From: a bacterium
GTDB taxonomy: Bacteria > Desulfobacterota > Desulfuromonadia > Desulfuromonadales > JAAYDE01
Reading direction: 5' to 3'
DNA length: 39,314 bases
NCBI GenBank assembly: GCA_024696325.1
Contig: JAILGY010000036.1
Coordinates: 1-39,314 of the forward strand
Numbering within the stretch: the stretch's first letter is position 1; the number at the start of each line of letters is the position of its first letter. Of this stretch, positions 19,121 through 37,059 are shown one piece after another. The translations under genes were made by a program, and so were the position numbers. The notes below the pieces were generated by a model, which did not search any database, was not told where the DNA came from, and saw only the letters and a program-made list of their open reading frames with translations.

Positions 19121-19144
19121 AAGCACATCCGTCCACTGAAAAAA

Positions 19145-19177
19145 GGGGCTGTTCTATTATGGAACAGCCCCTTTTTT
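19145..19177 (+). terminator. Intrinsic terminator after pdxK
   Basis: Perfect 10-bp stem GGGGCTGTTC (19145-19154) / GAACAGCCCC (19162-19171), 7-nt loop, then T6. Confidence 0.8.
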
Positions 19178-19502
19178 CATCATATTTCCAATACTCGCCA
19201 CTCGTCAACCTGCCTGGTCTTCGTGCTGAAATTCACGCTCGGCCTGAACTTTGCCCTGAAAGCGACTCGCTCTTCCTCCAGGTGTGGTCAATTTTAAAGT
19301 TTATCAGATTTTTGTTCCCATCATCCCCCGTCGCAGCGTGTTCTGGGCACCGGGTTAAATATGTTGAGATACCCCTCTAAAATGGACGGGATAAGCTATC
19401 TCCAACTTCAAGAGAGCGCCTCTGTCTTCGCATGCAGTTTCTAAGCTTTAGGCTGCGGTGATACGACTCAGAGGCTGTCCTCAATTCTTTTTCATTTTTT
19501 CC

Positions 19503-19531
19503 TTGACATTCATCACAGAATGGCATAAAGA
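19503..19531 (+). promoter_or_regulatory. Candidate promoter of the sulfate-assimilation operon
   Basis: Perfect TTGACA at 19503-19508. The -10 is weak or ambiguous: TAAAGA with a 17-nt spacer, or AAAGAT with an 18-nt spacer. Confidence 0.35.
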
Positions 19532-19549
19532 TGCTCCCCACGAAATAAC

Positions 19550-19572
19550 ATACCAACATAGTTGGTTGGTAT
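19550..19572. promoter_or_regulatory. Inverted repeat between the promoter and the leader ORF (candidate operator or 5' hairpin)
   Basis: ATACCAAC-N7-GTTGGTAT is a perfect 8-bp inverted repeat. It has a nested CCAAC-ATA-GTTGG palindrome and lies 10 nt upstream of the leader-ORF SD. Confidence 0.3.
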
Positions 19573-19593
19573 CTTTAACGGAAGGAGAAAAAT

Positions 19594-19725
19594 ATGAATG
19601 CCTCGTTTCTGTGCCGAAGGTCGTGCTGTTGCTGTGAAGGCCCGTCCCGTCGAACGTGTTGCCTCCGATGTTGCACTGTCCTGATGTGTTCGCACACAGT
19701 TGGACAAAGACGAATGCACACCTGA
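19594..19725 (+). CDS. Cysteine-rich leader peptide (43 aa, 10 Cys), candidate regulatory uORF
   Basis: It is below the ORF-track size cutoff and was read directly. AAGGAG (19582-19587) lies 6 nt before the ATG. Translation: MNASFLCRRSCCCCEGPSRRTCCLRCCTVLMCSHTVGQRRMHT*. Cys codons are at 19612, 19624-19635 (four in a row), 19657-19662, 19669-19674 and 19687. Confidence 0.6.
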   Translation: MNASFLCRRSCCCCEGPSRRTCCLRCCTVLMCSHTVGQRRMHT

Positions 19726-19756
19726 GCGGGATGAACGGATTATCCCGCTTTTTTAT
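19726..19756 (+). terminator. Intrinsic terminator (attenuator) between the leader ORF and sbp
   Basis: Stem GCGGGAT (19726-19732) / ATCCCGC (19742-19748), 9-nt loop, then TTTTTTATT. It starts 1 nt after the leader stop codon and ends 46 nt before the sbp ATG. Confidence 0.7.
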
Positions 19757-19802
19757 TGTCTGAAAAACATGACTACAACCATTTGAAAAGGAATACATCA
19801 CC

Positions 19803-20888
19803 ATGAAGCATCGCAAAAAACATCTCTTTGCCCCGGCATTCGCCGCTGCTCTCGCCTTGGGAGTACTGGGCGCATTGGCCACCCCGGTTTCTGGAAACGC
19901 CGCGGAGAAGAAAGACCCTATCGAACTGACGAATGTCTCCTACGATCCGACCCGCGAGTTGTATGCCGCCTACAACAAAATCTTCGAACCGCACTATGAA
20001 AAACTGACCGGCCGCAAAATCTCGGTGACCCAGTCCCACGGTGGGTCCGGTAAACAGGCGCTGGAGGTGGCCAACGGTCTTGAAGCCGATGTGGTTACTC
20101 TGGCTCTGGAAGGCGACGTGCAGGTCGTAGCCAACGCCGGGCTCATCGAACCTGGCTTTACTTCCGAATTTCCGTTGGACAGCTCGCCCTATACGTCGGT
20201 CATCGTGTTTCTCGTTCGTGCCGGAAATCCCAAGAAGATTCTCGACTGGAACGATCTCGTCCGGGACGATGTGGGCATCATCACTCCCAACCCAAAGACT
20301 TCGGGCGGCGCCATGTGGAATTACCTTGCAGCCTGGCGCTACTTCGAGCTTCAGGGGCAGGACAACAAGCAGATTCTGAACTCCATCCGCAAACTGTACA
20401 GTAACGTGGTGGTCCTGGATTCCGGGGCACGCGGCTCCACCACCTCCTTTGTGGAAAACAAGCAGGGCGACGTGCTGCTGGCCTGGGAGAACGAGGCCTT
20501 CCTGTCCCTGAAAGAATATCCGGGTGAATACGAGATTGTGGTTCCTTCTGTCTCCATCCTGTGCCAGCCCACCGTGGCCGTGGTGGACAAGGTGGCCAAA
20601 AAGCACGGCACAACGGACGCAGCCAAGGAGTATTTGCGCTATCTTTACTCCGAGAAGGCCCAAATCATTGAGGCCCAAAACTTCTACCGTCCAAGTTCGA
20701 AAGCAATCCGCGACCGTTTCGTCTCGACATCCGAATCCTCCACCATCACCGCGATTCCTGCGGACGGCCGGTGGATCAACGAAAAAGTGCATCTTACCGA
20801 TATCAGACACTTCGGCGGCTGGACCAAGGCAAGAGCCGTCCACTTCGCCAACGGCGCCAATTTTGACAGCATCTACGAGCGCCGTTAG
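19803..20888 (+). CDS. sbp: Sulfate/thiosulfate ABC transporter substrate-binding protein
   Basis: 361 aa. Signal peptide. Sbp/CysP motifs (LTNVSYDPTRELY, SHGGSGKQA, ADVVTLAL, PKTSGGA.WNYLAAW). Confidence 0.9.
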   Translation: MKHRKKHLFAPAFAAALALGVLGALATPVSGNAAEKKDPIELTNVSYDPTRELYAAYNKIFEPHYEKLTGRKISVTQSHGGSGKQALEVANGLEADVVTLALEGDVQVVANAGLIEPGFTSEFPLDSSPYTSVIVFLVRAGNPKKILDWNDLVRDDVGIITPNPKTSGGAMWNYLAAWRYFELQGQDNKQILNSIRKLYSNVVVLDSGARGSTTSFVENKQGDVLLAWENEAFLSLKEYPGEYEIVVPSVSILCQPTVAVVDKVAKKHGTTDAAKEYLRYLYSEKAQIIEAQNFYRPSSKAIRDRFVSTSESSTITAIPADGRWINEKVHLTDIRHFGGWTKARAVHFANGANFDSIYERR

Positions 20889-20896
20889 CGGCACTG

Positions 20897-20935
20897 CTTT
20901 TCGGGGCGCAGGCCGGGACGCTTCGCCCCGAAAAG
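20897..20935 (+). promoter_or_regulatory. Intercistronic stem-loop after sbp (mRNA stabiliser or partial terminator)
   Basis: Perfect 12-bp stem CTTTTCGGGGCG (20897-20908) / CGCCCCGAAAAG (20924-20935), 15-nt loop, no clean U-run downstream. Confidence 0.55.
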
Positions 20936-20969
20936 CTCTGTTTGCACCACAACGCCTTAAGGAAAATCC

Positions 20970-21818
20970 ATGAAACATACAACGCGAAACAACCGGCACA
21001 GCATCATCCCCGGCTTCGGATTGTCTTTCGGAGTCATGATTACCATCCTGAGTCTGGTGGTGCTGATTCCGCTGTGCTCACTGGTGGTCTTTGCGGCCAA
21101 GCTCTCGCCCGCCGAATTTTTTTACATCATCACCCGGCCACGGGTCTTGTCGAGCTGCTGGGTGAGCCTCTCCACTGCGCTAACGGCGGCGTTGGTCAAC
21201 GCGGTCATGGGACTTGTCCTTGCCTGGGTACTGGTGCGTTACGAATTTCCCGGCAAACGTTTTATCGACGGTATCATTGAACTGCCCTTCGCCCTGCCCA
21301 CGGCTGTGGCGGGCATCTCCCTAACCCATCTGACCACAACCAATGGCTGGGTAGGAAAAATTTTTCACGATCTCTTCGGCATCCGCATCGCCTACACCCG
21401 TCTGGGCATTATCGTGGCCCTTGTCTTCATTGGCATTCCTTTCGTGGTGCGCTCAATTCAGCCTGTGCTGGAGAAAATCGATATCCAGTACGAGGAGGCA
21501 GCTATGATTCTGGGCGCAAACGGCAGGACTACCTTTCGCCGGGTTATTTTCCCGGAAATTCTCCCGGCGCTGATTTCCGGTTTCACCCTGGCTTTTGCCC
21601 GCGGCATCGGAGAATACGGCAGCGTGGTCTTCATCGCGGGCAACACACCCTACAAGACGGAGATAGCCCCGCTGCTCATCATGGCGGAACTACAGGAATT
21701 CGACTATGCCGCTGCCACCACCATCGCGCTGATGATGCTGGCCATCGCCTTCATCATTCTGTCTGTAAACGCGATCTTGCAAAGCGTCGTATCCCGCCGC
21801 ATCAGCGGACTGGCCTAG
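20970..21818 (+). CDS. cysT: Sulfate ABC transporter permease CysT
   Basis: 282 aa. CysT-like motifs (IPGFGLSFG, VLVRYEFPGKRFIDGIIELPFALPTAVAGI). Confidence 0.9.
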   Translation: MKHTTRNNRHSIIPGFGLSFGVMITILSLVVLIPLCSLVVFAAKLSPAEFFYIITRPRVLSSCWVSLSTALTAALVNAVMGLVLAWVLVRYEFPGKRFIDGIIELPFALPTAVAGISLTHLTTTNGWVGKIFHDLFGIRIAYTRLGIIVALVFIGIPFVVRSIQPVLEKIDIQYEEAAMILGANGRTTFRRVIFPEILPALISGFTLAFARGIGEYGSVVFIAGNTPYKTEIAPLLIMAELQEFDYAAATTIALMMLAIAFIILSVNAILQSVVSRRISGLA

Positions 21819-21828
21819 GGAGGAAATT

Positions 21829-22659
21829 ATGGAACTCCGGAAAAACAGAGGTCTCCTGAAGTGGACTCTGATCACGCTCTGCGCGGTCTTTCTGGCCGTT
21901 TTCCTGTTACTGCCGCTCGTGTATATCATCATCACGGCGCTCCGAGAAGGATATGCCATCTATATTAAAAAGATCACGGACATCTACGCATGCAAAGCGG
22001 CCTGGCTCACGGTACAGGCTACAGTCTGGGCCGTGGTGGTCAATACGATCTGCGGTGTTGCCGCGGCATGGTGCCTGACAAAATTCGCCTTCAGAGGTAA
22101 AAAGCTCATTGCCACCTTTATCGATCTGCCGGTTACGGTATCCCCCATTATCGCGGGCCTCATCTATCTTCTCACCTTCGGCCGTCAGAGCTTTTTGCAT
22201 CCGCTTCTGGAAAACTGGGACATCAAGATCGTCTTCGCCGTTCCGGGCATCGTCCTGGCAACGATCTTTGTCACCTTCCCGTTTATCTCCCGGGAACTGA
22301 TCCCGGTACTGACGGCCCAGGGCACGGACGAGGAAGAGGCCGCTGCCCTCATGGGCGCAGGGACTTTTACCATCTTCCGCAAGGTGACTCTGCCTCACAT
22401 CAAGTGGGCGCTTCTGTACGGCGTCGTACTCTGCACGGCCCGGGCCATGGGAGAATTTGGAGCGGTCTCTGTCCTTTCCGGGCATCTCCGGGGCAAAACC
22501 AACACACTGCCGCTGTACATCGAACTGCTGTATCAGGGCTATGATTTCACCGGCGCATTCGCCGCGTCGTCACTTTTGGTGGTGATGGCGCTTGTCATTT
22601 TAGCACTTCGTCTCTGGCTGGAACGCCGGGGCAAAAAGGAACTGGACATCCGAAAGTGA
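21829..22659 (+). CDS. cysW: Sulfate ABC transporter permease CysW
   Basis: 276 aa. CysW-like motifs (FRGKKLIATFIDLPVTVSPIIAGL, EEAAALMGA). Confidence 0.9.
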   Translation: MELRKNRGLLKWTLITLCAVFLAVFLLLPLVYIIITALREGYAIYIKKITDIYACKAAWLTVQATVWAVVVNTICGVAAAWCLTKFAFRGKKLIATFIDLPVTVSPIIAGLIYLLTFGRQSFLHPLLENWDIKIVFAVPGIVLATIFVTFPFISRELIPVLTAQGTDEEEAAALMGAGTFTIFRKVTLPHIKWALLYGVVLCTARAMGEFGAVSVLSGHLRGKTNTLPLYIELLYQGYDFTGAFAASSLLVVMALVILALRLWLERRGKKELDIRK

Positions 22660-22669
22660 GGTAACCGTC

Positions 22670-23743
22670 ATGAACGGATATGCCGCTTATGTGGAACTTC
22701 GGAATATTAACAAGCATTTCAATGACTTTCATGCTTCAAAAGATATCAACATTGCTATTCCCAAAGGAAGGCTGGTCGCGTTGCTCGGTCCCTCCGGCAG
22801 TGGAAAAACTACAATTTTGCGCATGATTGCCGGACTGGAGCAGCCGGATTCCGGCGAGATTCTCATTGACGGTCAGGTGGTCAACGATGTGCCCGGCAGT
22901 GAGCGGGGTATTGGCTTCGTCTTCCAGAACTATGCATTGTTCCGCTCCATGACGGTCTTTGAAAACATCGCCTTCGGTTTGCGGGTGAAGAAGGCGCCGG
23001 AAAACATCATCCAGGAGCGGGTGGCCGAATTGCTTGCGCTCATCGACTGCAAGGGTCTGGAAAAACGTTATCCCAGCCAGCTCTCCGGCGGCCAGCGCCA
23101 ACGCGTGGCCTTTGCAAGGGCACTGGCGCCCAATCCCCAGATTCTGCTTCTGGACGAGCCCTTTGCCGCCATTGATGCCAAAGTCCGGCTGGAATTACGT
23201 ACCTGGCTGCGGGAGATGATCACAAGACTGCACATTACCAGCATTTTCGTCACTCATGATCAGGACGAGGCCATTGAGGTAGCAGACGAGATCGTCGTGA
23301 CCAACCAGGGACGGGTGGAGCAGTCCGGTTCGCCGCAGGAGCTGTATGCCCGTCCGGCCACATCCTTTGTTGCACGTTTCATTGGCAACTCCATTCTGGT
23401 GAAAAATTACGAACGTTTTCACCATTTTGATCGGCGTGGCGCGGACACGGAGGCCATTCTCCGGCCGGAGTTCGTTGGTATCTTCAAGAAGGGTGAAAAT
23501 CTCCAGTATTCGAGTTCCGCCGAGGAAGGCGTGGTGGAAGACATCATTTTCCGGGGCAGCAGCCTGGAAATTCGCGTGCGCCTGCACGGCAATCTGCTAT
23601 CCGCTCTTCGCAGCATCAACGAGCCGACCATCCAGGTGGGCGAAACGGTGGACGTATTCATCTATCGGCTGTTCGTCATCGACGGCAGCACTGTAACGCT
23701 GGCGCACAACCAGTCGCTGGCGCGGGAAAGCGTGGTGATCTGA
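22670..23743 (+). CDS. cysA: Sulfate ABC transporter ATP-binding protein CysA
   Basis: 357 aa. Walker A GPSGSGKTT, signature LSGGQRQRVA, Walker B LLLDEPF, plus a C-terminal TOBE-like regulatory domain. Confidence 0.9.
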   Translation: MNGYAAYVELRNINKHFNDFHASKDINIAIPKGRLVALLGPSGSGKTTILRMIAGLEQPDSGEILIDGQVVNDVPGSERGIGFVFQNYALFRSMTVFENIAFGLRVKKAPENIIQERVAELLALIDCKGLEKRYPSQLSGGQRQRVAFARALAPNPQILLLDEPFAAIDAKVRLELRTWLREMITRLHITSIFVTHDQDEAIEVADEIVVTNQGRVEQSGSPQELYARPATSFVARFIGNSILVKNYERFHHFDRRGADTEAILRPEFVGIFKKGENLQYSSSAEEGVVEDIIFRGSSLEIRVRLHGNLLSALRSINEPTIQVGETVDVFIYRLFVIDGSTVTLAHNQSLARESVVI

Positions 23744-23744
23744 A

Positions 23745-25436
23745 ATGATGAAGAAACGGTTTTTGGCAACCGACATACTTGTCGCCGGAGGAGGAACAGC
23801 AGGCTGCTACGCCGCTATTACCGCGGCGCGGCGTTCTCCGGATATCGGCATTCTGATTGTGGAAAAGGCGAATGTGGAGCGTTCCGGCTGCCTGGCTGCC
23901 GGGGTAAACGCACTGAACGCCTACATTACGGAGGGGCAGAGCGTTCGGGACTATCTGGAATTCGTCCGCCAGGACGCGGAAAAGATTATACGCGATGACC
24001 TCGTCCTCACCATGGCGGAGCGTTTCAACGAAACTGCCGCAGATCTGGAACGCATGGGGCTGGTGATCCAGAAGGACAAAAACGGAAACTATGCCGCCCG
24101 TGGCCGGCACAACATCCGGATCAATGGAGAAAACATCAAGCCCATACTGGCCGCTGAAACACGGCGTCATGGGAACATCCGTATCCTGAACCATGTTAAC
24201 CTGACGGAGCTCCTGACCTGGGACGGCCGCGTGATAGGCGCGGCGGGTTTTTCCGTAACGGACGAAACCGCCTATGCCATTTTTGCGCGAGCGGTGATCA
24301 TGGCCACCGGAGGAGCAGCGGGATTGTACCGTCCCAACAACCCCGGTTTCTCCCGGCACAAGATGTGGTACCCGCCTTTTAACACCGGGGCGGGTTACGC
24401 CATGGGCATCAGGGCTGGGGCGGAAATGACCAGCTTCGAGATGCGCTTTGTCGCCCAGCGCTGCAAGGATACCATCGCCCCGACAGGCACCATTGCCCTA
24501 GGAGCCGGTGCGCGGGAAATAAACGCGCTGGGCGAGATATTTGAGACACGTTACGGACTTTCCACCTCAGGCCGGGCTTATGGAGCAGCCAATGAGGTCC
24601 GGGAAGGACGCGGACCCTGTTTTCTACGCACGCAGGGCATCACCCCCAAACAGGATAATGATCTGTTGAAAGCCTACCTTAACATGGCTCCCGCACAAAC
24701 GTTGAAATGGATCGAAAGCGGAAAGCTGCCGTCCGGGTACAACGTGGAGGTGGAAGGTACGGAGCCCTACATCGTCGGCGGACATACTGGAAGCGGATAC
24801 TGGGTAGACACGGCACGGCGCACCACCCTTCCCGGTCTGTACGCAGCCGGCGACGTATCCGGCGGCGCACCGAAAAAGTTCGTCACCGGTGCTCTGGCCG
24901 AGGGTGCCATAGCGGCCGAGACGGCACTGGCTGATCTGAAAGTCCTGCCCGATGTTCCGGAACTCGCATTTGCGGAACAGGCAAACACGGTCTTTGCCGA
25001 ATATGAAACGCATCTTGCCCCTTTGGATAAAAAGACACTTTTCGACATATCCGCCCTGGAGGAAGCCATGCAGAAAATCATGGACGAATATGCCGGAGGC
25101 ATCCGCACCGGGTACCGCTACAACGAAAACCAGCTTTCCGTGGCGGAGGAGCGAATAGCATCACTGGCCGGGCTGGTTGAAAATCTGCGCGCCGAAGATG
25201 GAGACGGACTTCTCCGCATCTATGAACTCACCGAGCGCCTTACGGTTTGCCGGACACTGCTGGCCCACATGCGGGAGCGGAAAGAAACCCGCTGGCCGGG
25301 TTTCGGCATCCACACCGGTTACCCCAATGTGGACGAATGGCAGGAAAACTACGTCAACTCAAAACTCACGGACGGCCGTATAGAAGTTTTCCGCCGGGAG
25401 CTGGTCGGGGAGGACAACTATGAGCATACGCATTGA
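23745..25436 (+). CDS. AprA-like FAD flavoprotein (adenylylsulfate reductase alpha-subunit / fumarate reductase flavoprotein superfamily)
   Basis: 563 aa. N-terminal FAD dinucleotide fold (DILVAGGGTAGCYAA). AprA-like segments (GLYAAGDVSGG, PYIVGGHTGSGYW). Lies between cysA and cysD. Confidence 0.7.
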   Translation: MMKKRFLATDILVAGGGTAGCYAAITAARRSPDIGILIVEKANVERSGCLAAGVNALNAYITEGQSVRDYLEFVRQDAEKIIRDDLVLTMAERFNETAADLERMGLVIQKDKNGNYAARGRHNIRINGENIKPILAAETRRHGNIRILNHVNLTELLTWDGRVIGAAGFSVTDETAYAIFARAVIMATGGAAGLYRPNNPGFSRHKMWYPPFNTGAGYAMGIRAGAEMTSFEMRFVAQRCKDTIAPTGTIALGAGAREINALGEIFETRYGLSTSGRAYGAANEVREGRGPCFLRTQGITPKQDNDLLKAYLNMAPAQTLKWIESGKLPSGYNVEVEGTEPYIVGGHTGSGYWVDTARRTTLPGLYAAGDVSGGAPKKFVTGALAEGAIAAETALADLKVLPDVPELAFAEQANTVFAEYETHLAPLDKKTLFDISALEEAMQKIMDEYAGGIRTGYRYNENQLSVAEERIASLAGLVENLRAEDGDGLLRIYELTERLTVCRTLLAHMRERKETRWPGFGIHTGYPNVDEWQENYVNSKLTDGRIEVFRRELVGEDNYEHTH

Positions 25437-25734
25437 CCAGGAAAAATGCGCGGCCTGCGGCCGCTGCCGGGAAATTTGTCCAGGAAATCTCATAAAACGG
25501 GCTGAGAACGGCAAAGTGTTTCTGAAACGGCCGGAGGAGTGCTGGGGCTGCGCCTCATGCCTTAAAGAATGTGTCCACGGTGCCATTGCCTACTTCCTCG
25601 GAGCGGACATCGGCGGACGCGGGAGCCTCATGCGGACAAAGCGCGAGGGGGATGTCACCGACTGGATCATCACCCTTCCGGAAGGGAAAACCGTCACCAT
25701 CTCGGTCAACAGGCGCAACGCCAACGAATATTAG
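25420..25734 (+). CDS. Small 2x[4Fe-4S] ferredoxin (AprB-like partner of the flavoprotein)
   Basis: 104 aa. [12 protein letters not shown] and [11 protein letters not shown] motifs. The start overlaps the flavoprotein gene by 17 nt. Confidence 0.7.
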
Positions 25735-25747
25735 GAGGCATAAAGAC

Positions 25748-26650
25748 ATGCGGGAATTATCCCATCTCGACAAACTGGAGGCGGAAGCTATTTACATTAT
25801 CCGAGAGGTAGCGGCGGAGTGCGAAAAGCCGGTGATGCTCTACTCCATCGGCAAAGACAGCTCCGTCATGCTGCATCTGGCCAGAAAAGCCTTTTATCCG
25901 GAAAAGCCGCCTTTCCCCTTTTTACATATAGATACAGGATGGAAATTCAGGGAAATGATCACCTTCCGGGATAACATGGCAAAGAGATACGGCCTTGACA
26001 TGCTCGTCTACACCAACGAAGAGGGAGTGCGGCAAGGCATCAACCCATTCGATCATGGCGCTGTTTACACGGATGTGATGAAGACCCAGGCACTCAAACA
26101 GGCACTCACGAAGTACGGCTTCACAGCGGCTTTCGGCGGTGGACGACGAGACGAAGAAAAGTCCCGCGCCAAGGAACGCATTTTTTCTTTCCGCAACACC
26201 GAACAGGCCTGGGATCCGAAAAACCAGCGCCCGGAGATGTGGAAGCTCTACAATACCCGTATCAAAAAAGGTGAAAGCATCCGGGTGTTTCCCATCTCCA
26301 ATTGGACGGAGAAGGATATCTGGCAGTATATCCGGCGTGAGAGCATAGAAATCGTACCGCTGTACTTCGCGGCAAAGCGTCCCGTTGTTCGCCGGGACGG
26401 CAACATCATCATGGTGGACGATGATCGTTTGCCGCTTTTACCCGGTGAGAGGCCGGAGTATCTAAGCGTGCGTTTCCGCACCCTGGGTTGTTACCCGCTG
26501 ACCGGCGGTGTGGAATCGACGGCGGATACACTGGATGCCATTGTCAGAGAAACATTGAGTGCTGTCACGAGCGAACGCACCAGCCGTGTCATAGATCGGG
26601 ATGGCGGCGCAGCCAGCATGGAAAAACGCAAACGGGAGGGATATTTCTGA
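25748..26650 (+). CDS. cysD: Sulfate adenylyltransferase subunit 2 (CysD)
   Basis: CysD N-terminus ([21 protein letters not shown]...[18 protein letters not shown]). AGGAGG RBS before the ATG at 25748. The track ORF start at 25571 is an upstream extension that overlaps the ferredoxin gene. Confidence 0.9.
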
Positions 26651-28248
26651 TGAACGGACTTCTGAAATTCATCACCTGTGGCAGCGTGGATGACGGTAAG
26701 TCCACACTCATCGGGCACATTCTTTACGACACCAAGCTCCTCTATGCCGATCAGGAGCGAGCACTGGAACTGGACAGCCGTGTGGGCTCCCGGGGCGGAG
26801 CGATCGATTACTCCCTGCTTCTGGACGGGCTTATGGCGGAACGCGAACAGGGCATCACCATCGACGTGGCCTACCGTTATTTCACGACAGATCGACGCAG
26901 CTTCATTGTGGCAGACACGCCTGGACATGAGGAATACACCCGCAATATGGCGGTAGGCGCAAGTTTCGCCGATCTGGCGGTTATTCTGGTAGATGCAACG
27001 AAGGGCGTGCTTGTGCAGACGCGCCGTCATGCGCGCATCTGCGCACTCATGGGCATCCGAGCTTTCGTATTCGCTGTAAACAAAATGGATCTGGTAGAGT
27101 ATGACCGCAAACCCTTTGAAAAGATTCAGGCGCAAATAGAGGAACTTGAAAACGAACTGGGGCTGCAGGACGTCAAAATCATCCCGCTCTCCGCCACAAC
27201 AGGGGAGAATTTGACAAAACCGTCAGCTCTCATGGACTGGTACCAGGGCGGACCTTTGCTGAACTGGCTCGAAACGGTGGCAGTGGAACCCGCCGGTCAC
27301 GAGGAGGGATTTTACATGCCCGTCCAGCGGGTATGCCGTCCGGATCATACCTTCCGGGGCTTTCAGGGACAAATCGAAACCGGTGAGATCCGGATCGGAG
27401 ATATGCTGAGCGTTCTGCCCAGCGGCACAAAGGCCGGTGTAAAAAACATACTGGTGGGCGATCAGTCCGTCAGTGCAGCAGGAGAAGGCCAGCCCGTTAC
27501 CATAGAACTGGATACGGAGGTGGACATCTCGCGCGGCAGCGTTCTCGTCAAAGACACGGTTCCGCACACGGCCAGCCATTTCGATGCCACCCTGCTCTGG
27601 ATGGATGACGAGACATTGACCCATTCCCGTGCCCTCTTTATCAAGGCAGGCACCCGGCTCATACCGGCAAAGATTGACAGCATCCGTTACACCGTGGATG
27701 TAAATACCGGTGAACACAGAAATGCCACAAGCCTGAAAAAGAACGAAATCGCCCTGTGCTCCATCTCGCTGTCGTCCCCAATTGTGGTGGACACCTTTTC
27801 CAGCCACCGGACACTGGGCGAACTGATCCTGATTGATCGGATCACCAACGCCACTGCCGCCTGTGGTATCATCGAAACGGTCTTTGATGCCGGTGAACAG
27901 AACGCGGAAAAGATCGGCCCGGAAACGCGGGCGAAATATATGGGCCAGACGCCGTTTCTCATCCTTGCGGACAACATCCACAAAGCCGAGGAAATTGAGC
28001 GGGAACTGCTCTCTCAGGGACTTCACACCATGCAGGTGCGCGAAAGTGGCGAGCATCTCCTTTTCGCCGCGGATCTGCTGCAGCAGGCCGGGATCATCAC
28101 GGTCATCCCTGGAGAGTCTCTGGATGCTCCGACGGAAAAGCGGATCCGGCAGGAACGGCGGCCGGAATTCGTTCTGGATCTTCGGGAAAGTGGACCGGAA
28201 AAGGATCGTCTGCTGTACGAAAATACCGTAAATTATACATACTACTAG
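26650..28248 (+). CDS. cysN: Sulfate adenylyltransferase subunit 1 (CysN GTPase) with a ~115-aa C-terminal extension
   Basis: The start ATG overlaps the cysD TGA (TGATG). GTPase motifs: GSVDDGKST, DTPGHEEY, NKMD. 532 aa, against roughly 475 aa for stand-alone CysN. Confidence 0.9.
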   Translation: MNGLLKFITCGSVDDGKSTLIGHILYDTKLLYADQERALELDSRVGSRGGAIDYSLLLDGLMAEREQGITIDVAYRYFTTDRRSFIVADTPGHEEYTRNMAVGASFADLAVILVDATKGVLVQTRRHARICALMGIRAFVFAVNKMDLVEYDRKPFEKIQAQIEELENELGLQDVKIIPLSATTGENLTKPSALMDWYQGGPLLNWLETVAVEPAGHEEGFYMPVQRVCRPDHTFRGFQGQIETGEIRIGDMLSVLPSGTKAGVKNILVGDQSVSAAGEGQPVTIELDTEVDISRGSVLVKDTVPHTASHFDATLLWMDDETLTHSRALFIKAGTRLIPAKIDSIRYTVDVNTGEHRNATSLKKNEIALCSISLSSPIVVDTFSSHRTLGELILIDRITNATAACGIIETVFDAGEQNAEKIGPETRAKYMGQTPFLILADNIHKAEEIERELLSQGLHTMQVRESGEHLLFAADLLQQAGIITVIPGESLDAPTEKRIRQERRPEFVLDLRESGPEKDRLLYENTVNYTYY

Positions 28249-28262
28249 AAGGAGGATTTCCC

Positions 28263-29123
28263 ATGGCTGTGGACTATGCGGCACTCAAGGCCGGCGGTTT
28301 TATGCGCCAGAAGCAGAAGAACACCTTTTCTCTCCGTCTGCGGGTGGTAGGCGGCACACTGACGGTGGAGCAACTTCAGACCATCGCCGCCGCAGCAAAA
28401 AAATACGGAAAGAACTACGTTCACCTCACTTCACGCCAGGGGGTGGAAATTCCCTTTATCCGGCTTGAAGACATTGAAAACATCAAAAACGACCTTGCCG
28501 CGGGCGGGGTGTCCCCCAGTGTCTGCGGGCCCCGCGTCCGAACGGTAACGGCCTGTCAGGGAGGACAATGCTGCCCCAGCGGCTGCATCGACGCGCTGGC
28601 CATTGCCACCGAGCTGGATCGCCGCTACTTCGGGCGGCAGCTACCCCACAAATTCAAGTTTGGCGTCACCGGATGCCAGAACAACTGCCTCAAGGCCGAG
28701 GAAAACGATCTGGGCGTCAAGGGCGGCATGGCCATCTCCTGGGCGGCGGATGAATGCACTCTCTGCGGTGTATGCGAAAAAGCCTGCCGCCGTGACGCGA
28801 TCTCCATGGGAAATGGCAAGATTGTGCTGGATGCGGGAAAATGCAACCACTGCGGCCGCTGCGTCATGGCCTGCCCCTCCGGAGCCTGGCACGGAAAAAG
28901 CGGTTACCTCGTCTCCTTCGGCGGCACTTTCGGAAATGCCATTCGGAAAGGCAGGGAGCTTCTTCCTCTTGTTGAAGACGAGGAGACATTGTGGCGGATA
29001 GCGGACACCGCCATCGAATATTTTGCCCAAAACGCCCAGCCCGGCGAACGCTTCGCCAAAGTACTGGAGCGTTTGGGATGGGATGATTTCACACGGAAAG
29101 TACGGGAAGCATATCAGGCTTGA
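28263..29123 (+). CDS. Small siroheme/[4Fe-4S] sulfite reductase with an inserted ferredoxin domain (low-molecular-weight assimilatory or AsrC/Dsr-like type)
   Basis: 286 aa. Sulfite/nitrite reductase Cys cluster (TACQGGQCC...GVTGCQNNC). Two inserted CxxCxxCxxxC motifs (CTLCGVCEKAC, CNHCGRCVMACP). GGAGG RBS. Confidence 0.8.
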   Translation: MAVDYAALKAGGFMRQKQKNTFSLRLRVVGGTLTVEQLQTIAAAAKKYGKNYVHLTSRQGVEIPFIRLEDIENIKNDLAAGGVSPSVCGPRVRTVTACQGGQCCPSGCIDALAIATELDRRYFGRQLPHKFKFGVTGCQNNCLKAEENDLGVKGGMAISWAADECTLCGVCEKACRRDAISMGNGKIVLDAGKCNHCGRCVMACPSGAWHGKSGYLVSFGGTFGNAIRKGRELLPLVEDEETLWRIADTAIEYFAQNAQPGERFAKVLERLGWDDFTRKVREAYQA

Positions 29124-29206: not shown

Positions 29207-30059
29207 ATGTCTTTGCCGGAATTGTCTCCAGAACTGAAACGAAAATTTGCTCGACTCCAGGCATATATCAGAACCCTGAATAGTCTGGTGGTAGCCTGCT
29301 CCGGAGGCGTAGATTCCACTCTCCTGCTTGCGGTGGCCCACGAGGTTCTGGGTGACCGGGTACTGGCTGTCACCGGCGCAGACGTCTCGGTGCCCAGCCG
29401 GGAAGTGGAGTTTGTGCGAACCTTTTGCGCGGCCCGGGGCATCCGGCATGTCATTTGCCCGGTCAATCCGCTGAAGGAAGCGGGCTACCGGCACAACAGT
29501 CCGGACCGCTGTTATTTTTGCAAAAAGATCCTGTTTACTGCGCTGATGGGCATCGCCCGGAAAAAGAGCACATATCGCGGAAGGCTCCAACAGGGATGAC
29601 ACGGGCGATTACCGGCCCGGACTGAGGGCTGCGGCGGAACTGTCGGTCAAAAGTCCGCTCAAGGAGGCGGGACTGGGCAAAGAGGAAATTCGCTTGCTTG
29701 CCAAAGCACTGGGCCTGCCAATCTGGGACAAGCCCGCCTCCGCCTGCCTGGCATCACGTTTCTCCTATGGCGAGGAAATTACCGAAGAAAAATTGCGCTG
29801 CGTCGAGCGCGCCGAACAATTTCTCATGGACAGCGGTTTTCGGCAGGCGCGGGTCAGAATTCACGGGCATCTCGCCAGAATTGAGGTGCCTCGGGAAGAT
29901 ATCGAAAAGCTGGCGGCGGCGGAGATACGTCAGGCTGTCTGCCAAGAATTCCGACGCATCGGTTTTCTGTTCACCGCCTTGGATCTGGAGGGCTACCGCA
30001 CCGGCAGTATGAACGCGGCTCTATCGCGCGAAACACCCGCCGGATTTCCGGGACGTTGA
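29207..30059 (+). pseudogene. larE: LarE-like PP-loop ATP pyrophosphatase / sulfur transferase, interrupted by a +1 frameshift
   Basis: The two track ORFs (29207-29599 and 29694-30059) together form one LarE/TIGR00268-like protein. They carry the PP-loop ACSGGVDS, CYFCKK, DDTGDYRPG and the SACLASRF Cys motif. The reading frames change at the A5 run at 29561-29565. Removing one A gives a continuous ...IARKRAHIAEGSNRDDTGDYRPG.... Confidence 0.7.
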
Positions 30060-33376: not shown

Positions 33377-33796
33377 TTAATCAACCAGTACCAGTTCCTC
33401 TTTTCTTACCATGTCGCCTTCGATGTGGAATGCATTGAGCACCGGGCGTTCCTCGTCCACAAGGGAGAGTATCAGATACGTCGCCTTCGAATCATAGGCG
33501 AGACGTCTGTCCTCCTCCGAGGGCCTTGCGGGAGAAGCCGGATGGGAATGCCAGTTGCCGATCGGTCTGATGCCCAGAGCCCTCATATCTTTAACCGCCC
33601 GCAGCTGTTCTTTGGGATCAAGCGTGAAATGATCAGAGGAATCATCAAGATTGGTCAGCAAATAGACCTTTCTGATTTCCCGTACTCCGTCCGCCGTTTC
33701 AACACCCCCGACTAGTCCGCAGACCTCCTTGGGCGCGCATTTTACGGCATGCGCAAGAATGGTCCCGTAGTCGGCGCTTTTCATAGTGATCCGCAT
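33377..33796 (-). CDS. JAMM/MPN+ (Mov34) metalloprotease, Mec+/HcyD/QbsD-like
   Basis: EVCGLVGG plus HSHPASPARPSEED (the HxHx7Sx2D JAMM motif). I placed the start at the ATG at 33796, which is preceded by GGAGG; the longer track ORF overlaps the thiF-like gene. Confidence 0.8.
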   Translation of the reverse strand: MRITMKSADYGTILAHAVKCAPKEVCGLVGGVETADGVREIRKVYLLTNLDDSSDHFTLDPKEQLRAVKDMRALGIRPIGNWHSHPASPARPSEEDRRLAYDSKATYLILSLVDEERPVLNAFHIEGDMVRKEELVLVD

Positions 33797-33812
33797 CTTG
33801 AGCCTCCCCGCC

Positions 33813-34628
33813 TCAGGTCCCGGGCCGCCACTCGCAGGCCGGTTGTTCATAGTCGGCAAGTTCCCTGATTTCGGGCTCGTCCGCGCAGACGGCGCACCCC
33901 TTTCCCCGTGCCGGCAGCTTGACCTTGCGGAAGTTCATCTGGAGGGCATCGTAGGTCAGAAGATAACCGGTGAGCAATTCCCCCACGCCGCAGATATACT
34001 TGACCGCCTCCATGGCCTGCAATGAGCCGATCACGCCGCCCATCGCGCCAATCACGCCCGCTTCCTTGCACGTGGGAATAACACCCTGCGGCGGCATTTC
34101 CCTGAATATGCACCGGTAACAGGGGCTTTCACCGGGAAGAACCGTCATCAGCTGCCCCTGAAAACGGATAATGCCCGCATGGCTGAAAGGCTTTCTGGCC
34201 ATGACGCAGGCGTCGTTGATCAAAAACTTGGCGGGGAAGTTGTCCGTACCATCCAGGACAAAGTCGTATTCCTCAATAATGTCCAAAATGTTGCCGCTGT
34301 CGACCCGCTCGGGCCAGGTCACGACCGTAATCTCCGGATTGATCGCCAGCATGGTTTCCTTTGCCGAGTCTACCTTGGCCTTGCCAATATCCGGCGTTGT
34401 GTGGATGATCTGGCGCTGCAGGTTGGACAGATCGACCACATCCGCATCCGCTATCCCGATAGTTCCAACCCCCGCCGCCGCAAGATACATCGCGGCAGGC
34501 GCGCCCAAGCCCCCCGCGCCTATGATCAACACCTTGGCATTCAGAAGCTTCTTCTGCCCCTTTGCGCCAATCTCTTTCAGGATGATATGCCGGGAATACC
34601 GCTCCAACTGTTCATTGCTCAAAGCCAT
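33813..34628 (-). CDS. ThiF/MoeB/HesA-family E1-like adenylyltransferase for the sulfur-carrier protein
   Basis: Starts at MALSNEQLERYSRHIIL. Nucleotide loop IIGAGGLGAPAA. CYRC and CAVC zinc motifs. No C-terminal rhodanese domain. The ATG at 34628 is preceded by GGGAGG. Confidence 0.85.
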   Translation of the reverse strand: MALSNEQLERYSRHIILKEIGAKGQKKLLNAKVLIIGAGGLGAPAAMYLAAAGVGTIGIADADVVDLSNLQRQIIHTTPDIGKAKVDSAKETMLAINPEITVVTWPERVDSGNILDIIEEYDFVLDGTDNFPAKFLINDACVMARKPFSHAGIIRFQGQLMTVLPGESPCYRCIFREMPPQGVIPTCKEAGVIGAMGGVIGSLQAMEAVKYICGVGELLTGYLLTYDALQMNFRKVKLPARGKGCAVCADEPEIRELADYEQPACEWRPGT

Positions 34629-34833
34629 GGCATCCGCCTCCCATGAAGTAGAGAAACTCCACCTCGTCGTTCTCCTGCAGAACCGTTGCCGCGAAATCCC
34701 GCCGGTCGACAAAGTTTCCGTTTATGGAAACCGTGACATATTCCGGCGATTCAATACCTTCCTGCTCAATCAGGGCGGGAAGCGCTATTCCTGCCGGAAC
34801 TTCTTTTTCCGTACCAGATACAACAATATGCAT
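34612..34833 (-). CDS. ThiS/MoaD-family sulfur-carrier protein with a C-terminal extension beyond the Gly-Gly motif
   Basis: 73 aa. ThiS-like fold signature (VSINGNFVDRRDFAATVLQENDEVEFLYFMGGG) followed by CHGFEQ. GGAGGGAG RBS. Overlaps the thiF-like start by 17 nt. Confidence 0.75.
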   Translation of the reverse strand: MHIVVSGTEKEVPAGIALPALIEQEGIESPEYVTVSINGNFVDRRDFAATVLQENDEVEFLYFMGGGCHGFEQ

Positions 34834-34850
34834 CTTGATTTTCTCCCTCC

Positions 34851-36083
34851 TCAGGCGTTTGCCCTGGCAATCGCCTGCGCAAAATCATGGGTCAAATCGC
34901 CGATATCCTCAATGCCCGCGCTTACACGCACGGTATCGTCATGAACGCCCGCTGCAAGCCGGCGTTCTTCCGTATTATTCTTGCAGATCGTCGAGGCAGG
35001 ATGCACCGCAATCGTCCGTACATCTCCAATATTGCTGACAATTTTGACATATTCCAGAGCATTCAGGATACGGTAGGCCCGTTCCTTCGAGCCTGCCCGG
35101 AATGTAAGGATGCCGCCGCCCAAACCGCGCAGTTCTTCCTGTACAAGCCCGCCATAGGGATTGCCGGGCAAAGTCGGATAGTTGACATCCCGGACCCCTT
35201 CCATTCCCGCCAGTGCCCGCGCAAGCCGGTCCGCATTGTCACAGATATGCTCCATCCGGATTCCCAGAGTTTCCATCCCGACAACGTTCAGAAACGCGTT
35301 CATGGGTGAGAGGCAGGCGCCCAGGTTTTCCCACAGATCGGTACGCAACCGGACCAGATAGGCCTGTTTCCCGTATTTCCGGAACCTGTTCAATGCGGGG
35401 AACCGGTCAAAATCCCAGTCAAATCTGCCGCCGTCCACTATGACGCCACTGATCGCGTTGCTCCCTCCGTTGATGTATTTCGATCCTGAATGCACCACGA
35501 TATCCGCCCCCAGCGACAGGGGATTGGCAAGAAACGGCGTGGCTGTCGTATTGTCCACAATGAGCGGGATTCCTCTTGCATGTGCAAACGCGGCAACGCT
35601 TTTTACATCCACCACATCCAGCCCCGGATTGCCAATCAGTTCGCAGTAGATCGCCCTTGTCCGCTCCGTCACAAGGTCCCCCAGTTCTTCAACACAAACA
35701 TGGCGCACAAAAGCGACATTGATGCCGAACTGGCGCAGATCCTCGAACAGATCGAAGGTGCCGCCGTACAATCCGCTTCCCGCGACGATCTCGTCACCAG
35801 AGCTCAGTATGTTCAACAGGGACAAGGCCACAGCTGCCATGCCGGAAGCCGTGGCCAACGCGCCGTTTCCTCCCTCCAGTTCGTTCATCCGCTGCTCGAA
35901 AGCGGCCACAGTAGGATTGCCAATCCGGCTGTAGGCAAACCCGGCTTTCCGGTGATGAAACACCTGTTCATGCTCTTCGGCGCTTGCATAGGCAAAGGCA
36001 TTGACCTGACTGACCGGAGGCAGAGTCGCCCCGGCAAAATAACCGGATGCGGCTCCATGCAGCAGCCTGGTATTGAAATGCAT
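34851..36083 (-). CDS. metY: O-acetylhomoserine/O-acetylserine sulfhydrylase family PLP enzyme (MetY/Cys-Met metabolism family)
   Basis: Starts MHFNTRLLHG at the ATG at 36083, after GGGAGG. Motifs YSRIGNPT, SGMAA, HSGSKYINGG (PLP lysine). Confidence 0.85.
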   Translation of the reverse strand: MHFNTRLLHGAASGYFAGATLPPVSQVNAFAYASAEEHEQVFHHRKAGFAYSRIGNPTVAAFEQRMNELEGGNGALATASGMAAVALSLLNILSSGDEIVAGSGLYGGTFDLFEDLRQFGINVAFVRHVCVEELGDLVTERTRAIYCELIGNPGLDVVDVKSVAAFAHARGIPLIVDNTTATPFLANPLSLGADIVVHSGSKYINGGSNAISGVIVDGGRFDWDFDRFPALNRFRKYGKQAYLVRLRTDLWENLGACLSPMNAFLNVVGMETLGIRMEHICDNADRLARALAGMEGVRDVNYPTLPGNPYGGLVQEELRGLGGGILTFRAGSKERAYRILNALEYVKIVSNIGDVRTIAVHPASTICKNNTEERRLAAGVHDDTVRVSAGIEDIGDLTHDFAQAIARANA

Positions 36084-36096
36084 TTCCGCCTCCCTT

Positions 36097-37059
36097 TCAA
36101 ATGACATAGAACCAGCCGGCATCCTCTTCATCCGCCTTCACCCGTTCCACCGGGCGATGCGTGGCATGATTGAACACCAGCTCCTGATTCTTCACGCTGA
36201 CCTTCGTGCCTTCGGGAACCGATTCCGTGATGAAGGTATTGCCGCCGATCACGACATTCCTGCCGATAACCGTATCGCCGCCCAGAATCGAAGCTCCGGA
36301 ATAGATGGTCACGTTATCGCAGATGGTCGGATGCCGTTTCACATTTTTCAGGCGCTGCCCGCCCCTGGTGGAAAGCGCTCCCAGCGTTACTCCCTGATAG
36401 ATTTTGACGTTGTCCCCGATAACCGTGGTTTCCCCAATGACGATGCCCGTCCCATGATCGATGAAAAAATACTTCCCGATGCAGGCTCCGGGATGGATAT
36501 CGATGCCGGTTTCCCGATGCGCATGTTCGGTCATGATGCGGGGAATGAGCGGTATGCCAAGGATATGCAGTTCATGCGCGATTCTATTGACCAGGATTGC
36601 GTACAGGCCGGGATAGGAGAAGATAATCTCATCCTTGTTAAACGCGGCGGGGTCGCCATCATAAGTCGCCTGGATGTCTGTTTCCAGCAATTCCCGTATG
36701 AATGGGATCCGTTCGAGAAAATGGAAGGTCAGCTCAAGTGACAGTTCGTGCAGTTCTTCTTCAGGAAGAGATCTGTATTTTTCCACGCATGGAAGCACAA
36801 TCATAATCTGTTTGGAGAGAACGGAAATGACATCTTCCAAAAGCATCGACGTGTTGTTTTTGGGTGTCAGCACCTTGCATTTCTTGTTGCTGAAAAATCC
36901 TTGGAAAATGATGATTTTCAGGTTTTCCAGCACATCCAGAATCAGTTCCGCGTCCGGATGTTCATGGTTGTTCACCGTGTCAATGTACTTGCTCCCCGCG
37001 TAGCTCCCCATCAGGTTTTCAACAAGACGATCAATTCGACCTGCCAAATCCGTTTTCAT
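36097..37059 (-). CDS. cysE: Serine O-acetyltransferase (hexapeptide-repeat, long N-terminal form)
   Basis: 320 aa. SATase motifs (DPAAFNKDEIIFSYPGLYAILVNRIAHEL, GIDIHPGACIGKYFFIDHGTGIVIGETTVIGDNVKIYQGVTLG). Confidence 0.9.
   Translation of the reverse strand: MKTDLAGRIDRLVENLMGSYAGSKYIDTVNNHEHPDAELILDVLENLKIIIFQGFFSNKKCKVLTPKNNTSMLLEDVISVLSKQIMIVLPCVEKYRSLPEEELHELSLELTFHFLERIPFIRELLETDIQATYDGDPAAFNKDEIIFSYPGLYAILVNRIAHELHILGIPLIPRIMTEHAHRETGIDIHPGACIGKYFFIDHGTGIVIGETTVIGDNVKIYQGVTLGALSTRGGQRLKNVKRHPTICDNVTIYSGASILGGDTVIGRNVVIGGNTFITESVPEGTKVSVKNQELVFNHATHRPVERVKADEEDAGWFYVI

Follow-up and report, generated by a model that had tools for sequence, protein, structure and literature searches.

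The stretch of DNA analysed here (the window) comprises the 39,314 nt of contig JAILGY010000036.1 (NCBI GenBank assembly GCA_024696325.1), from a bacterium assigned to the Desulfuromonadales of the phylum Desulfobacterota, and carries on its forward strand an operon for sulfate assimilation that begins with the gene sbp. Directly upstream of sbp lies a short open reading frame (ORF) rich in Cys codons, which runs into an intrinsic terminator. Comparison with related sequences makes it probable that in this leader the ribosome controls attenuation of sulfate operon transcription, sensing the supply of Cys-tRNA and probably also of Met-tRNA. An earlier interpretation made from the letters of the window (the sequence-only reading) had proposed an attenuator reading charged tRNA-Cys. 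The comparative evidence, i.e. a family of leaders with a terminator and with freely varying other codons, supports that proposal, and the enrichment of Met codons in the family extends it to Cys plus, probably, Met.

The leader ORF (19594-19725, + strand) starts with ATG, has 43 codons and encodes the peptide MNASFLCRRSCCCCEGPSRRTCCLRCCTVLMCSHTVGQRRMHT, as read from the window sequence. Ten of its codons specify Cys (codons 7, 11-14, 22, 23, 26, 27 and 32), including the tandem run TGC-TGT-TGC-TGT at 19624-19635, and it also contains two internal Met codons and seven Arg codons, four of the latter being the rare CGA. The ORF, its strong Shine-Dalgarno (SD) sequence with 6-nt spacing and the ten Cys codons with their tandem run are all present as the sequence-only reading had described them. 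The Cys richness is not a matter of chance. Under the base composition of the window the probability of at least ten Cys in 43 codons is 2.2e-7, and among the 425 six-frame ORFs of at least 30 amino acids in the window the leader ORF has the highest Cys fraction, 23 % compared to 14.5 % for the runner-up. The leader peptide had no match among 5.8 billion protein clusters, indicating that gene finders pass over the ORF.

The stop codon of the leader ORF, TGA (19723-19725), lies within the 5' arm of the terminator stem. The perfect core of this stem is AGCGGGAT/ATCCCGCT, the hairpin has an energy of -15.9 kcal/mol and its end (19750) is 53 nt before sbp. The sequence-only reading had described a 7-bp stem beginning 1 nt after the stop codon; the terminator with its T6 run is present, but the stem is longer than 7 bp, which places the stop codon inside it. 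A promoter scan of the window detected no consensus promoter in the interval from the terminator to sbp. A hairpin followed by a T-run was found between the ORF and sbp in all ten representative leaders examined from the family described below, with energies from -10.6 to -20.9 kcal/mol, and GCGGGA was almost always located within the 5' arm.

Relatives of the leader were sought in a sample of 69 loci with close relatives of Sbp, taken from one genome per species, 66 of which include the 5' end of sbp (individual loci are given as L numbers). A nucleotide profile (nhmmer) built from ten Cys-rich leaders matched upstream of sbp in 15 of these 66 loci and had no other match within them. Further copies of the leader were present in the L110-L119 set of contigs encoding Sbp relatives and in a metagenome match, L081. 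Among six extra Sbp relatives the leader was absent in L120, L125 and L126, and L118 and L119 were near-duplicates. The carriers are metagenome-assembled genomes (MAGs) labelled Oscillospiraceae, Lachnospiraceae, Acutalibacteraceae and Clostridiales, together with two 'delta' MAGs; the two sbp loci nearest to that of the window are rumen MAGs labelled Deltaproteobacteria and Desulfovibrionaceae. A RecD protein encoded in the window likewise has its nearest named relatives, at 48-50 % identity, in MAGs labelled 'Deltaproteobacteria', and the most likely host is thus an uncultured, Gram-negative bacterium of gut or rumen that resembles Desulfobacterota. Sbp is 72-92 % identical across the carrier groups and even in rumen Planctomycetes, and evidently the operon, leader included, has moved horizontally.

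The conservation of this family follows the pattern expected of a translated sensor. All family leaders keep the start codon, an open frame rich in Cys and Met, and the terminator, and every leader whose 5' end is included, with the sole exception of L062, has an SD-like sequence ahead of its start codon. In the ten representatives the ORF frame is free of stop codons and another frame always contains one; internal ATG triplets fall in the ORF frame in 41 of 54 cases (p = 2e-10) and TGY triplets in 62 of 114 (p = 3e-6). In alignment A2 the indels within the ORF, up to the second of its two clusters of Cys and Met codons (clusters 1 and 2, Table 1), are of 6 or 12 nt. These sequence signatures argue for translation of the leader ORF. 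The peptide itself is variable: within subfamilies non-synonymous changes exceed synonymous ones, the three codon positions vary equally, single Cys codons are gained or lost and new Met codons arise while the Cys-Cys cores stay, and leader length ranges from 26 to 58 codons across the family. A variable peptide with a maintained codon content indicates selection on the codons and not on their product, as fits a leader peptide. The comparison of regions upstream of sbp relatives, for which the sequence-only reading had anticipated a conserved ORF, conserved Cys codons and a conserved terminator among otherwise changing codons, thus came out as proposed.

Codon usage in the leaders differs strongly from that of the neighbouring genes. 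Cys accounts for 17 % of leader codons compared to 0.9 % in neighbouring genes, and Cys and internal Met together make up 21-41 % of each leader. The rare codon CGA represents 46 % of leader Arg codons compared to 6 % in neighbouring genes; these overall counts include close relatives, and the bias persists when one sequence per subfamily is counted manually (CGA in about 15 of 27 Arg codons). CGA is typically found directly 5' of ATG or TGT (CGA-ATG, CGA-TGT-TGC), examples in the window being those at 19615, 19651, 19666 and 19711. The TGT:TGC ratio is 72:33 in the leaders and 48:176 in neighbouring genes. Met is probably the second sensed amino acid, which is plausible because the pathway supplies both Cys and Met. 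The rare codons, i.e. CGA before Cys or Met and TGT in preference to TGC, probably raise the sensitivity of the ribosome to tRNA supply. In some classical leaders, rare regulatory codons are reported to sharpen stalling.

A transcription attenuator also needs a strand that can capture the 5' arm of the terminator. Just 3' of cluster 1 there is a pyrimidine-rich block, here called R2, which resembles the 3' arm of the terminator and in its first ten nucleotides is complementary to the 5' arm; GTGT (19655-19658) at its end pairs with GCAC just 5' of the arm. The sequence-only reading had noted by eye a pairing of 19643-19650 with 19726-19733, and this pairing involves R2. Among upstream partners of the 5' arm, R2 scored best both in the window (-14.3 kcal/mol, p ~0.03 compared to shuffles) and in L001 (-16.4 kcal/mol, p ~0.015). 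When 19636-19739 was folded, representing a ribosome on cluster 1 and a 3' arm not yet made, both the minimum free energy structure and the centroid paired R2 with the arm. Across 11 leaders, 89.8 % of the cells of the 8-pair R2:arm helix are standard pairs, a share that falls to 30-48 % on shifting the partner by 1-3 columns, and the spacing between cluster 1 and R2 is free of indels in the same number of leaders (A2, ~columns 86-155). In L116 a compensatory change from C:G to U:A has occurred (arm GCAGGA, R2 CCCTGCC), at a position where the terminator stem of L116 itself is mismatched. The amino acid encoded at the compensated R2 position varies (Arg, Ser, Cys) and the pairing is mostly kept, so the constraint is on the RNA and not on the peptide.

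The pairing can be extended in the 5' direction. With the arm and 14 bases of its 5' flank as query, the best partner began at the R2 block in all nine representatives tested, and from the duplexes the extended pairing takes in (G)AATGCACA / ACACAT, an element conserved ahead of the terminator. Such pairing would explain the conservation of these bases in L007, where they lie 3' of the stop codon; as the L007 counterpart of 19711-19725 is untranslated, its conservation is one of the RNA. The strongest case is provided by the L034 subfamily, in which the arm differs (ATGCCCGGGAGC) and R2 differs correspondingly (ACTCCCAGGCAT...ATGGCA), so that the two match. The L034 duplex has an energy of -26.5 kcal/mol, none of 300 shuffles was as good, and the fold without the 3' arm gave z = -3.57. 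In the consensus fold of the L023 subfamily cluster 1 pairs with R2, which corresponds to the classical 1:2 helix. Judged by sequence, a candidate antiterminator is present in leaders of the L034 type, in L001 and L116 and in the window; in L002, L005, L007 and L035 the support is weak. Taking these results together, we give a specific R2:arm antiterminator about an even chance of being real.

The course of events that we infer would begin with transcription from about 19538 and translation of the leader ORF from its strong SD. When Cys is scarce, the ribosome would stall at cluster 1, at codons 7 and 11-12. With its A site on Cys7, Cys11 or Cys12, its leading edge (~13 nt ahead) would be located at or before 19641, just short of R2, and the free R2 (19642-19651) could capture the emerging 5' arm (19726-19733) and thereby block the terminator, so that RNA polymerase would read into sbp-cysTWA-aprAB-cysDN-sir. 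When Cys is plentiful, the ribosome would cover R2, the arm would join its 3' partner and most transcripts would end near 19754. The site and timing of the stall, the direction of the response and the role of rare codons as sensitisers are predictions of this scheme. Throughout the family the spacing of cluster 1, R2 and cluster 2 is fixed, which agrees with the ribosome footprint serving as a ruler, and the interval between R2 and CGA-TGT-TGC is constant among window-type leaders, L005 and L007.

Several observations weigh against an attenuator of this kind. The ORF continues for 24 codons after R2, and its stop codon lies 72 nt past R2 and inside the terminator stem, so that a ribosome terminating there would not mask R2. 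If the ribosome followed the polymerase closely, it would cover the 5' arm on reaching the stop codon and cause read-through while Cys is plentiful, a response opposite to that expected. Half of the Cys codons (five of ten) are downstream of R2, and stalling at these would leave the ribosome on R2 or slightly beyond it. In L002, L005, L007 and L035 the antiterminator energies are not significant compared to shuffles. In the window type no 1:2 (anti-antiterminator) helix rose above the level of shuffled sequences; this helix is typical of attenuators and not defining, and some of those described have none. The whole leader folds no more stably than shuffles (z = -0.38), and in equilibrium folds of the leader with a ribosome mask at every codon the positions were barely separated, the terminator always winning thermodynamically. 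In addition, many carriers are Clostridia, and in Bacillus subtilis, which like these belongs to the Bacillota, RNA polymerase is reported to outrun the ribosome; this would make control by a leader peptide harder to time.

The geometry of the window leader is indeed non-classical, as the sequence-only reading had pointed out, with the stop codon in the terminator stem and no 1:2 helix in this type. The position of the stop codon is not conserved: the window shares its overlap with the stem with L001, L002 and L117, whereas in other subfamilies the stop codon lies 20-62 nt upstream of the stem, and in L116 a 1-nt difference removes the stop codon at the terminator, giving a 58-codon ORF (L116 796-972) that crosses the terminator and ends ~30 nt before sbp. 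The overlap with the stem is therefore probably not the core of the mechanism. It could add a mode of direct occlusion when a ribosome stalls at CGA40-AUG41.

Occlusion might also be the whole mechanism. A ribosome near the end of the ORF, slowed at CGA40-AUG41 or waiting at UGA, would then cover the 5' arm and prevent termination, and read-through would be set by the distance between ribosome and polymerase, or by Met-tRNA at codon 41, and not by an RNA antiterminator. The ~44-codon leader ORF of Escherichia coli pyrBI offers a parallel, as it extends into the attenuator terminator, where a ribosome near the end of the ORF can block the hairpin. Unlike the window leader, pyrBI lacks a run of regulatory codons and responds not to an amino acid but to UTP, by way of polymerase pausing, and in the present family the overlap between ORF and terminator is limited to one subfamily. 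The stop codon and Met41 (19714-19716) of the window leader are within one ribosome footprint of the arm, and in the ribosome-mask folds the terminator probability dropped, to 0-0.5, only with the A site at the last four positions, from Met41 to the stop. The overlap is moreover kept in L001, L002 and L117, and the ORF of L116 reads through the terminator. For Cys, though, the direction of the response would be wrong, since stalls at the upstream Cys codons favour termination; the subfamilies in which the stop precedes the stem show that occlusion cannot be the common mechanism of the family, and the R2-arm complementarity would be left unexplained. We thus regard occlusion as the sole mechanism as unlikely. 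A translation-independent RNA switch, i.e. a riboswitch or a protein- or tRNA-binding leader controlling the terminator with the ORF only incidental, would account for blocks that are conserved as nucleotides though untranslated, such as GAATAYACACATGAGCGGG 3' of the stop codon in L007, and for the conserved palindrome in the 5' untranslated region (UTR). It appears quite improbable given the frame-locked ATG and TGY triplets, the conserved SD and start codon and the in-frame indels in the ORF core; the overall fold is also not unusually stable, and Rfam gave no match at gathering or relaxed thresholds.

The strong SD, the open frame and the conserved Cys-Cys pairs would equally suit a free-standing gene for a small protein with its own terminator beside sbp, e.g. 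a Cys-rich metal-binding or redox peptide, and Cys-rich peptides can vary outside their Cys residues. The peptide is nevertheless under no purifying selection, its length, Cys positions and stop codon shift, and none is on record among the protein clusters searched. It is always found directly 5' of sbp, in several phylogenetic groups and with no consensus promoter detected between terminator and sbp, and the enrichment of Met and rare codons would not be expected of a structural peptide, which makes a small-protein gene very unlikely. Translational attenuation of the mycobacterial type, for which there is a precedent (bioRxiv 10.1101/834739), would have stalled ribosomes unmask the ribosome-binding site (RBS) of sbp, the terminator acting only as a leaky barrier. 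In the window, 19682-19691 (codons 30-33, including ATG-TGT) is 90 % complementary to 19791-19800, between the SD and the start codon of sbp. This segment is deleted in L001, L111 and L112 and the pairing, judged by eye, is poor in L002 and L117, and the complementarity is probably due to chance. As what the family conserves is the terminator and not a helix that hides the RBS, we consider this explanation highly improbable.

The coordinates of the elements discussed are collected in Table 1. The promoter placed upstream of the leader is inferred from conservation, the TTGACA box, the 17-nt spacer and TAnAAn being kept in L001, L002, L116 and L117; a consensus promoter scan of the window did not call it, its -10 box being weak. 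Transcription would then start near 19538, giving the leader ORF a 5' UTR of ~55 nt. The inverted repeat in this region is conserved in window-type leaders, with ACCTGC/GTAGGT replacing ACCAAC/GTTGGT in L117, and no second copy of it was found in the window. It could form a (stabilising) 5' stem-loop or be the operator of a repressor that provides a second layer of control.

Table 1 Features of the leader region and the sulfate operon in the window
Feature	Position	Strand	Description
Likely sigma-70 promoter	19503-19531	+	-35 TTGACA 19503-19508, 17-nt spacer, -10 TAAAGA 19526-19531; inferred from conservation
Near-perfect inverted repeat in the 5' UTR	19547-19575	+	AACATACCAAC ... GTTGGTATCTT; 11 nt, 91 % complementary
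SD of the leader ORF	19580-19587	+	GGAAGGAG; 6 nt to the ATG
Sensor cluster 1 (Cys7 and the Cys11-14 run)	19612-19635	+	Best-kept Cys/Met cluster of the family (alignments A1, A2); proposed main stalling site
Block R2, proposed upstream antiterminator strand	19642-19658	+	CCGTCCCGTC (19642-19651) complements the 5' arm of the terminator
Sensor cluster 2	19657-19689	+	TGT TGC CTC CGA TGT TGC (19657-19674), then ATG TGT (19684-19689)
End of the leader ORF, CGA-ATG-CAC-ACC-TGA	19711-19725	+	Met codon 8 nt before the terminator stem, stop codon within the stem
Intrinsic terminator	19724-19754	+	11-bp stem (19724-19734 with 19740-19750, including G-U), 5-nt loop, T6 19749-19754
sbp RBS and gene	RBS 19788-19793; coding sequence 19803-20888	+	RBS AAGGAA; first controlled gene; NF008022, 385 bits
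Remaining sulfate assimilation genes	20970-29123	+	cysT, cysW, cysA, AprA-like and AprB-like APS reductase, cysD, cysN, small sulfite reductase

The pyridoxamine kinase gene upstream closes with a strong terminator of its own (19137-19179), and the leader thus heads a separate transcription unit. Downstream, more + strand genes follow the sulfate genes up to ~33380, and no strong + strand terminator was found inside the gene array downstream of the leader. The sequence-only reading had put more than 13 kb of sulfate genes under control of the leader. About 9.3 kb (19803-29123) clearly belong to sulfate assimilation, whereas the figure of 13 kb assumes that the whole + strand array is one transcript. 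At 29207-30059 there is a 130-aa ORF whose match to LarE-type PP-loop sulfur transferases is confined to their N-terminal 110 residues. It is followed by a 121-aa ORF without a family match; the two may represent a frameshifted or split gene within the operon. Convergent with the sulfate operon, a - strand cluster (33377-37059) encodes a serine acetyltransferase (cysE-like), an O-acetylhomoserine/O-acetylserine sulfhydrylase, a MoeB/MoeZ-type adenylyltransferase and a JAB/Mec-like peptidase, and resembles protein-thiocarboxylate (CysO-type) synthesis of sulfur amino acids.

The Sbp proteins, the genes next to sbp and the terminator stem also occur in wider contexts. Sbp proteins 68-92 % identical to that of the window are encoded in rumen and gut MAGs of Lachnospiraceae, Oscillospiraceae, Planctomycetes (Thermoguttaceae), Fretibacterium and Desulfovibrionaceae, a spread that suggests wide horizontal transfer of the sulfate transporter and its operon in the rumen. 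A LysR-family gene is located directly upstream of sbp on the same strand in L004, L006, L011, L014, L017, L040, L121, L034, L057 and L062. The last three of these loci carry both the LysR gene and the leader, which rules out that the two are mutually exclusive alternatives and indicates that the two controls can be layered. Replacement of the leader by a T-box or S-box in leaderless relatives found no support, as neither the window nor 20 such loci had a match in Rfam at gathering or relaxed thresholds. A scan of metagenome DNA for the terminator pattern gave 40 loci, one of them the relative L081 and the other 39 unrelated terminators that share the stem. The stem TGAGCGGGATGA...TCCCGCT recurs in such unrelated terminators (L070-L109); one of these lies 3' of a coding region on many human-gut contigs, and another, in L084, L088, L106 and L109, follows a tRNA-like or tmRNA-like 3' end (GGTTCGATTCC...CCAC).

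In full-text literature searches, leader ORFs with Cys codons were found only in Actinobacteria and without terminators. Cys leader peptides have been predicted in Actinobacteria without a conserved terminator (Seliverstov et al. 2005, PMC1262725), and in mycobacteria leaderless polycysteine ORFs relieve sequestration of the RBS where this has been tested (Canestrari et al. 2020, bioRxiv 10.1101/834739) and have been treated as translation attenuators in later work (PMC13236596). The statement of the sequence-only reading that mycobacterial polycysteine upstream ORFs are Cys-responsive attenuators thus has its precedent in the literature (bioRxiv 10.1101/834739). Like the mycobacterial and Actinobacterial leaders, the window leader is an unannotated short ORF with consecutive Cys codons upstream of an operon for Cys or sulfur metabolism, and the proposed sensor is in both cases a ribosome pausing for Cys-tRNA. 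Unlike them, the family described here has a conserved canonical terminator and is co-enriched in Met and CGA, and unlike the leaderless mycobacterial ORFs the window leader has a ~55-nt 5' UTR, a strong SD and a likely promoter ~90 nt upstream. Judged from a few published descriptions and not from sequences, the Actinobacterial leaders do not resemble that of the window.

The leader is closer in design to the classical attenuators (trp, his, leu, thr, ilv and pheA of Proteobacteria, trp and ilvB of Actinobacteria), with which it shares a short SD-led ORF rich in codons for the product of the pathway, rare regulatory codons, a terminator before the first structural gene and a strand just 3' of the regulatory codons that can pair with the 5' arm. 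It differs from them in its proposed sensing of Cys (and Met), which are outside the classical cases, in having no 1:2 helix, with regulatory codons flanking R2 on both sides, and in an ORF that continues 24 codons beyond R2 and ends in the stem. Its carriers also include Clostridia, where such attenuators are rare: leader-peptide attenuators are uncommon in Firmicutes, and a His leader of bacilli was reported as the first (PMC2965389). Like the Cys T-box and the S-box (SAM) riboswitches of Firmicutes, the leader would use a terminator to control Cys, Met or sulfate genes from their 5' leader; unlike these, it has no Rfam match, in the window or in 20 related loci, and its sensor would be a translated ORF. 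New compared to the known systems are the combination of an SD-led ORF with a conserved terminator and antiterminator strand, the co-enrichment of Met and rare codons, and the occurrence in Clostridia and Desulfobacterota-like hosts. More tentatively, and with considerable doubt, the leader may be seen as a mobile attenuator with dual sensing of Cys and Met that has moved with the sulfate operon from Clostridia to Desulfobacterota-like rumen bacteria, in which a P-site CGA followed by UGU or AUG would sharpen the stalls and of which the window subtype would combine an antiterminator with occlusion by the ribosome.

If the leader acts as proposed, Cys and probably Met would join the amino acids sensed by classical terminator-based attenuation. 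Were the mobile Cys and Met sensor also to be true, it would be the first transcription attenuator of the classical type that is specific for Cys, and an example of a leader-peptide attenuator at work in Clostridia. The proposed role by itself would place such attenuators in gut and rumen Clostridia, a group of the phylum in which T-boxes and riboswitches have been thought to serve this purpose. With its unusual geometry and rare-codon bias the leader would offer a small natural system in which to study the influence of codon choice, and of the spacing of ribosome and polymerase, on the response of an attenuator. As gene callers miss the leader, the operon currently looks unregulated. The attenuator would explain how the whole pathway from sulfate to sulfide is switched in uncultured rumen bacteria, in an environment where sulfur supply affects the production of hydrogen sulfide.

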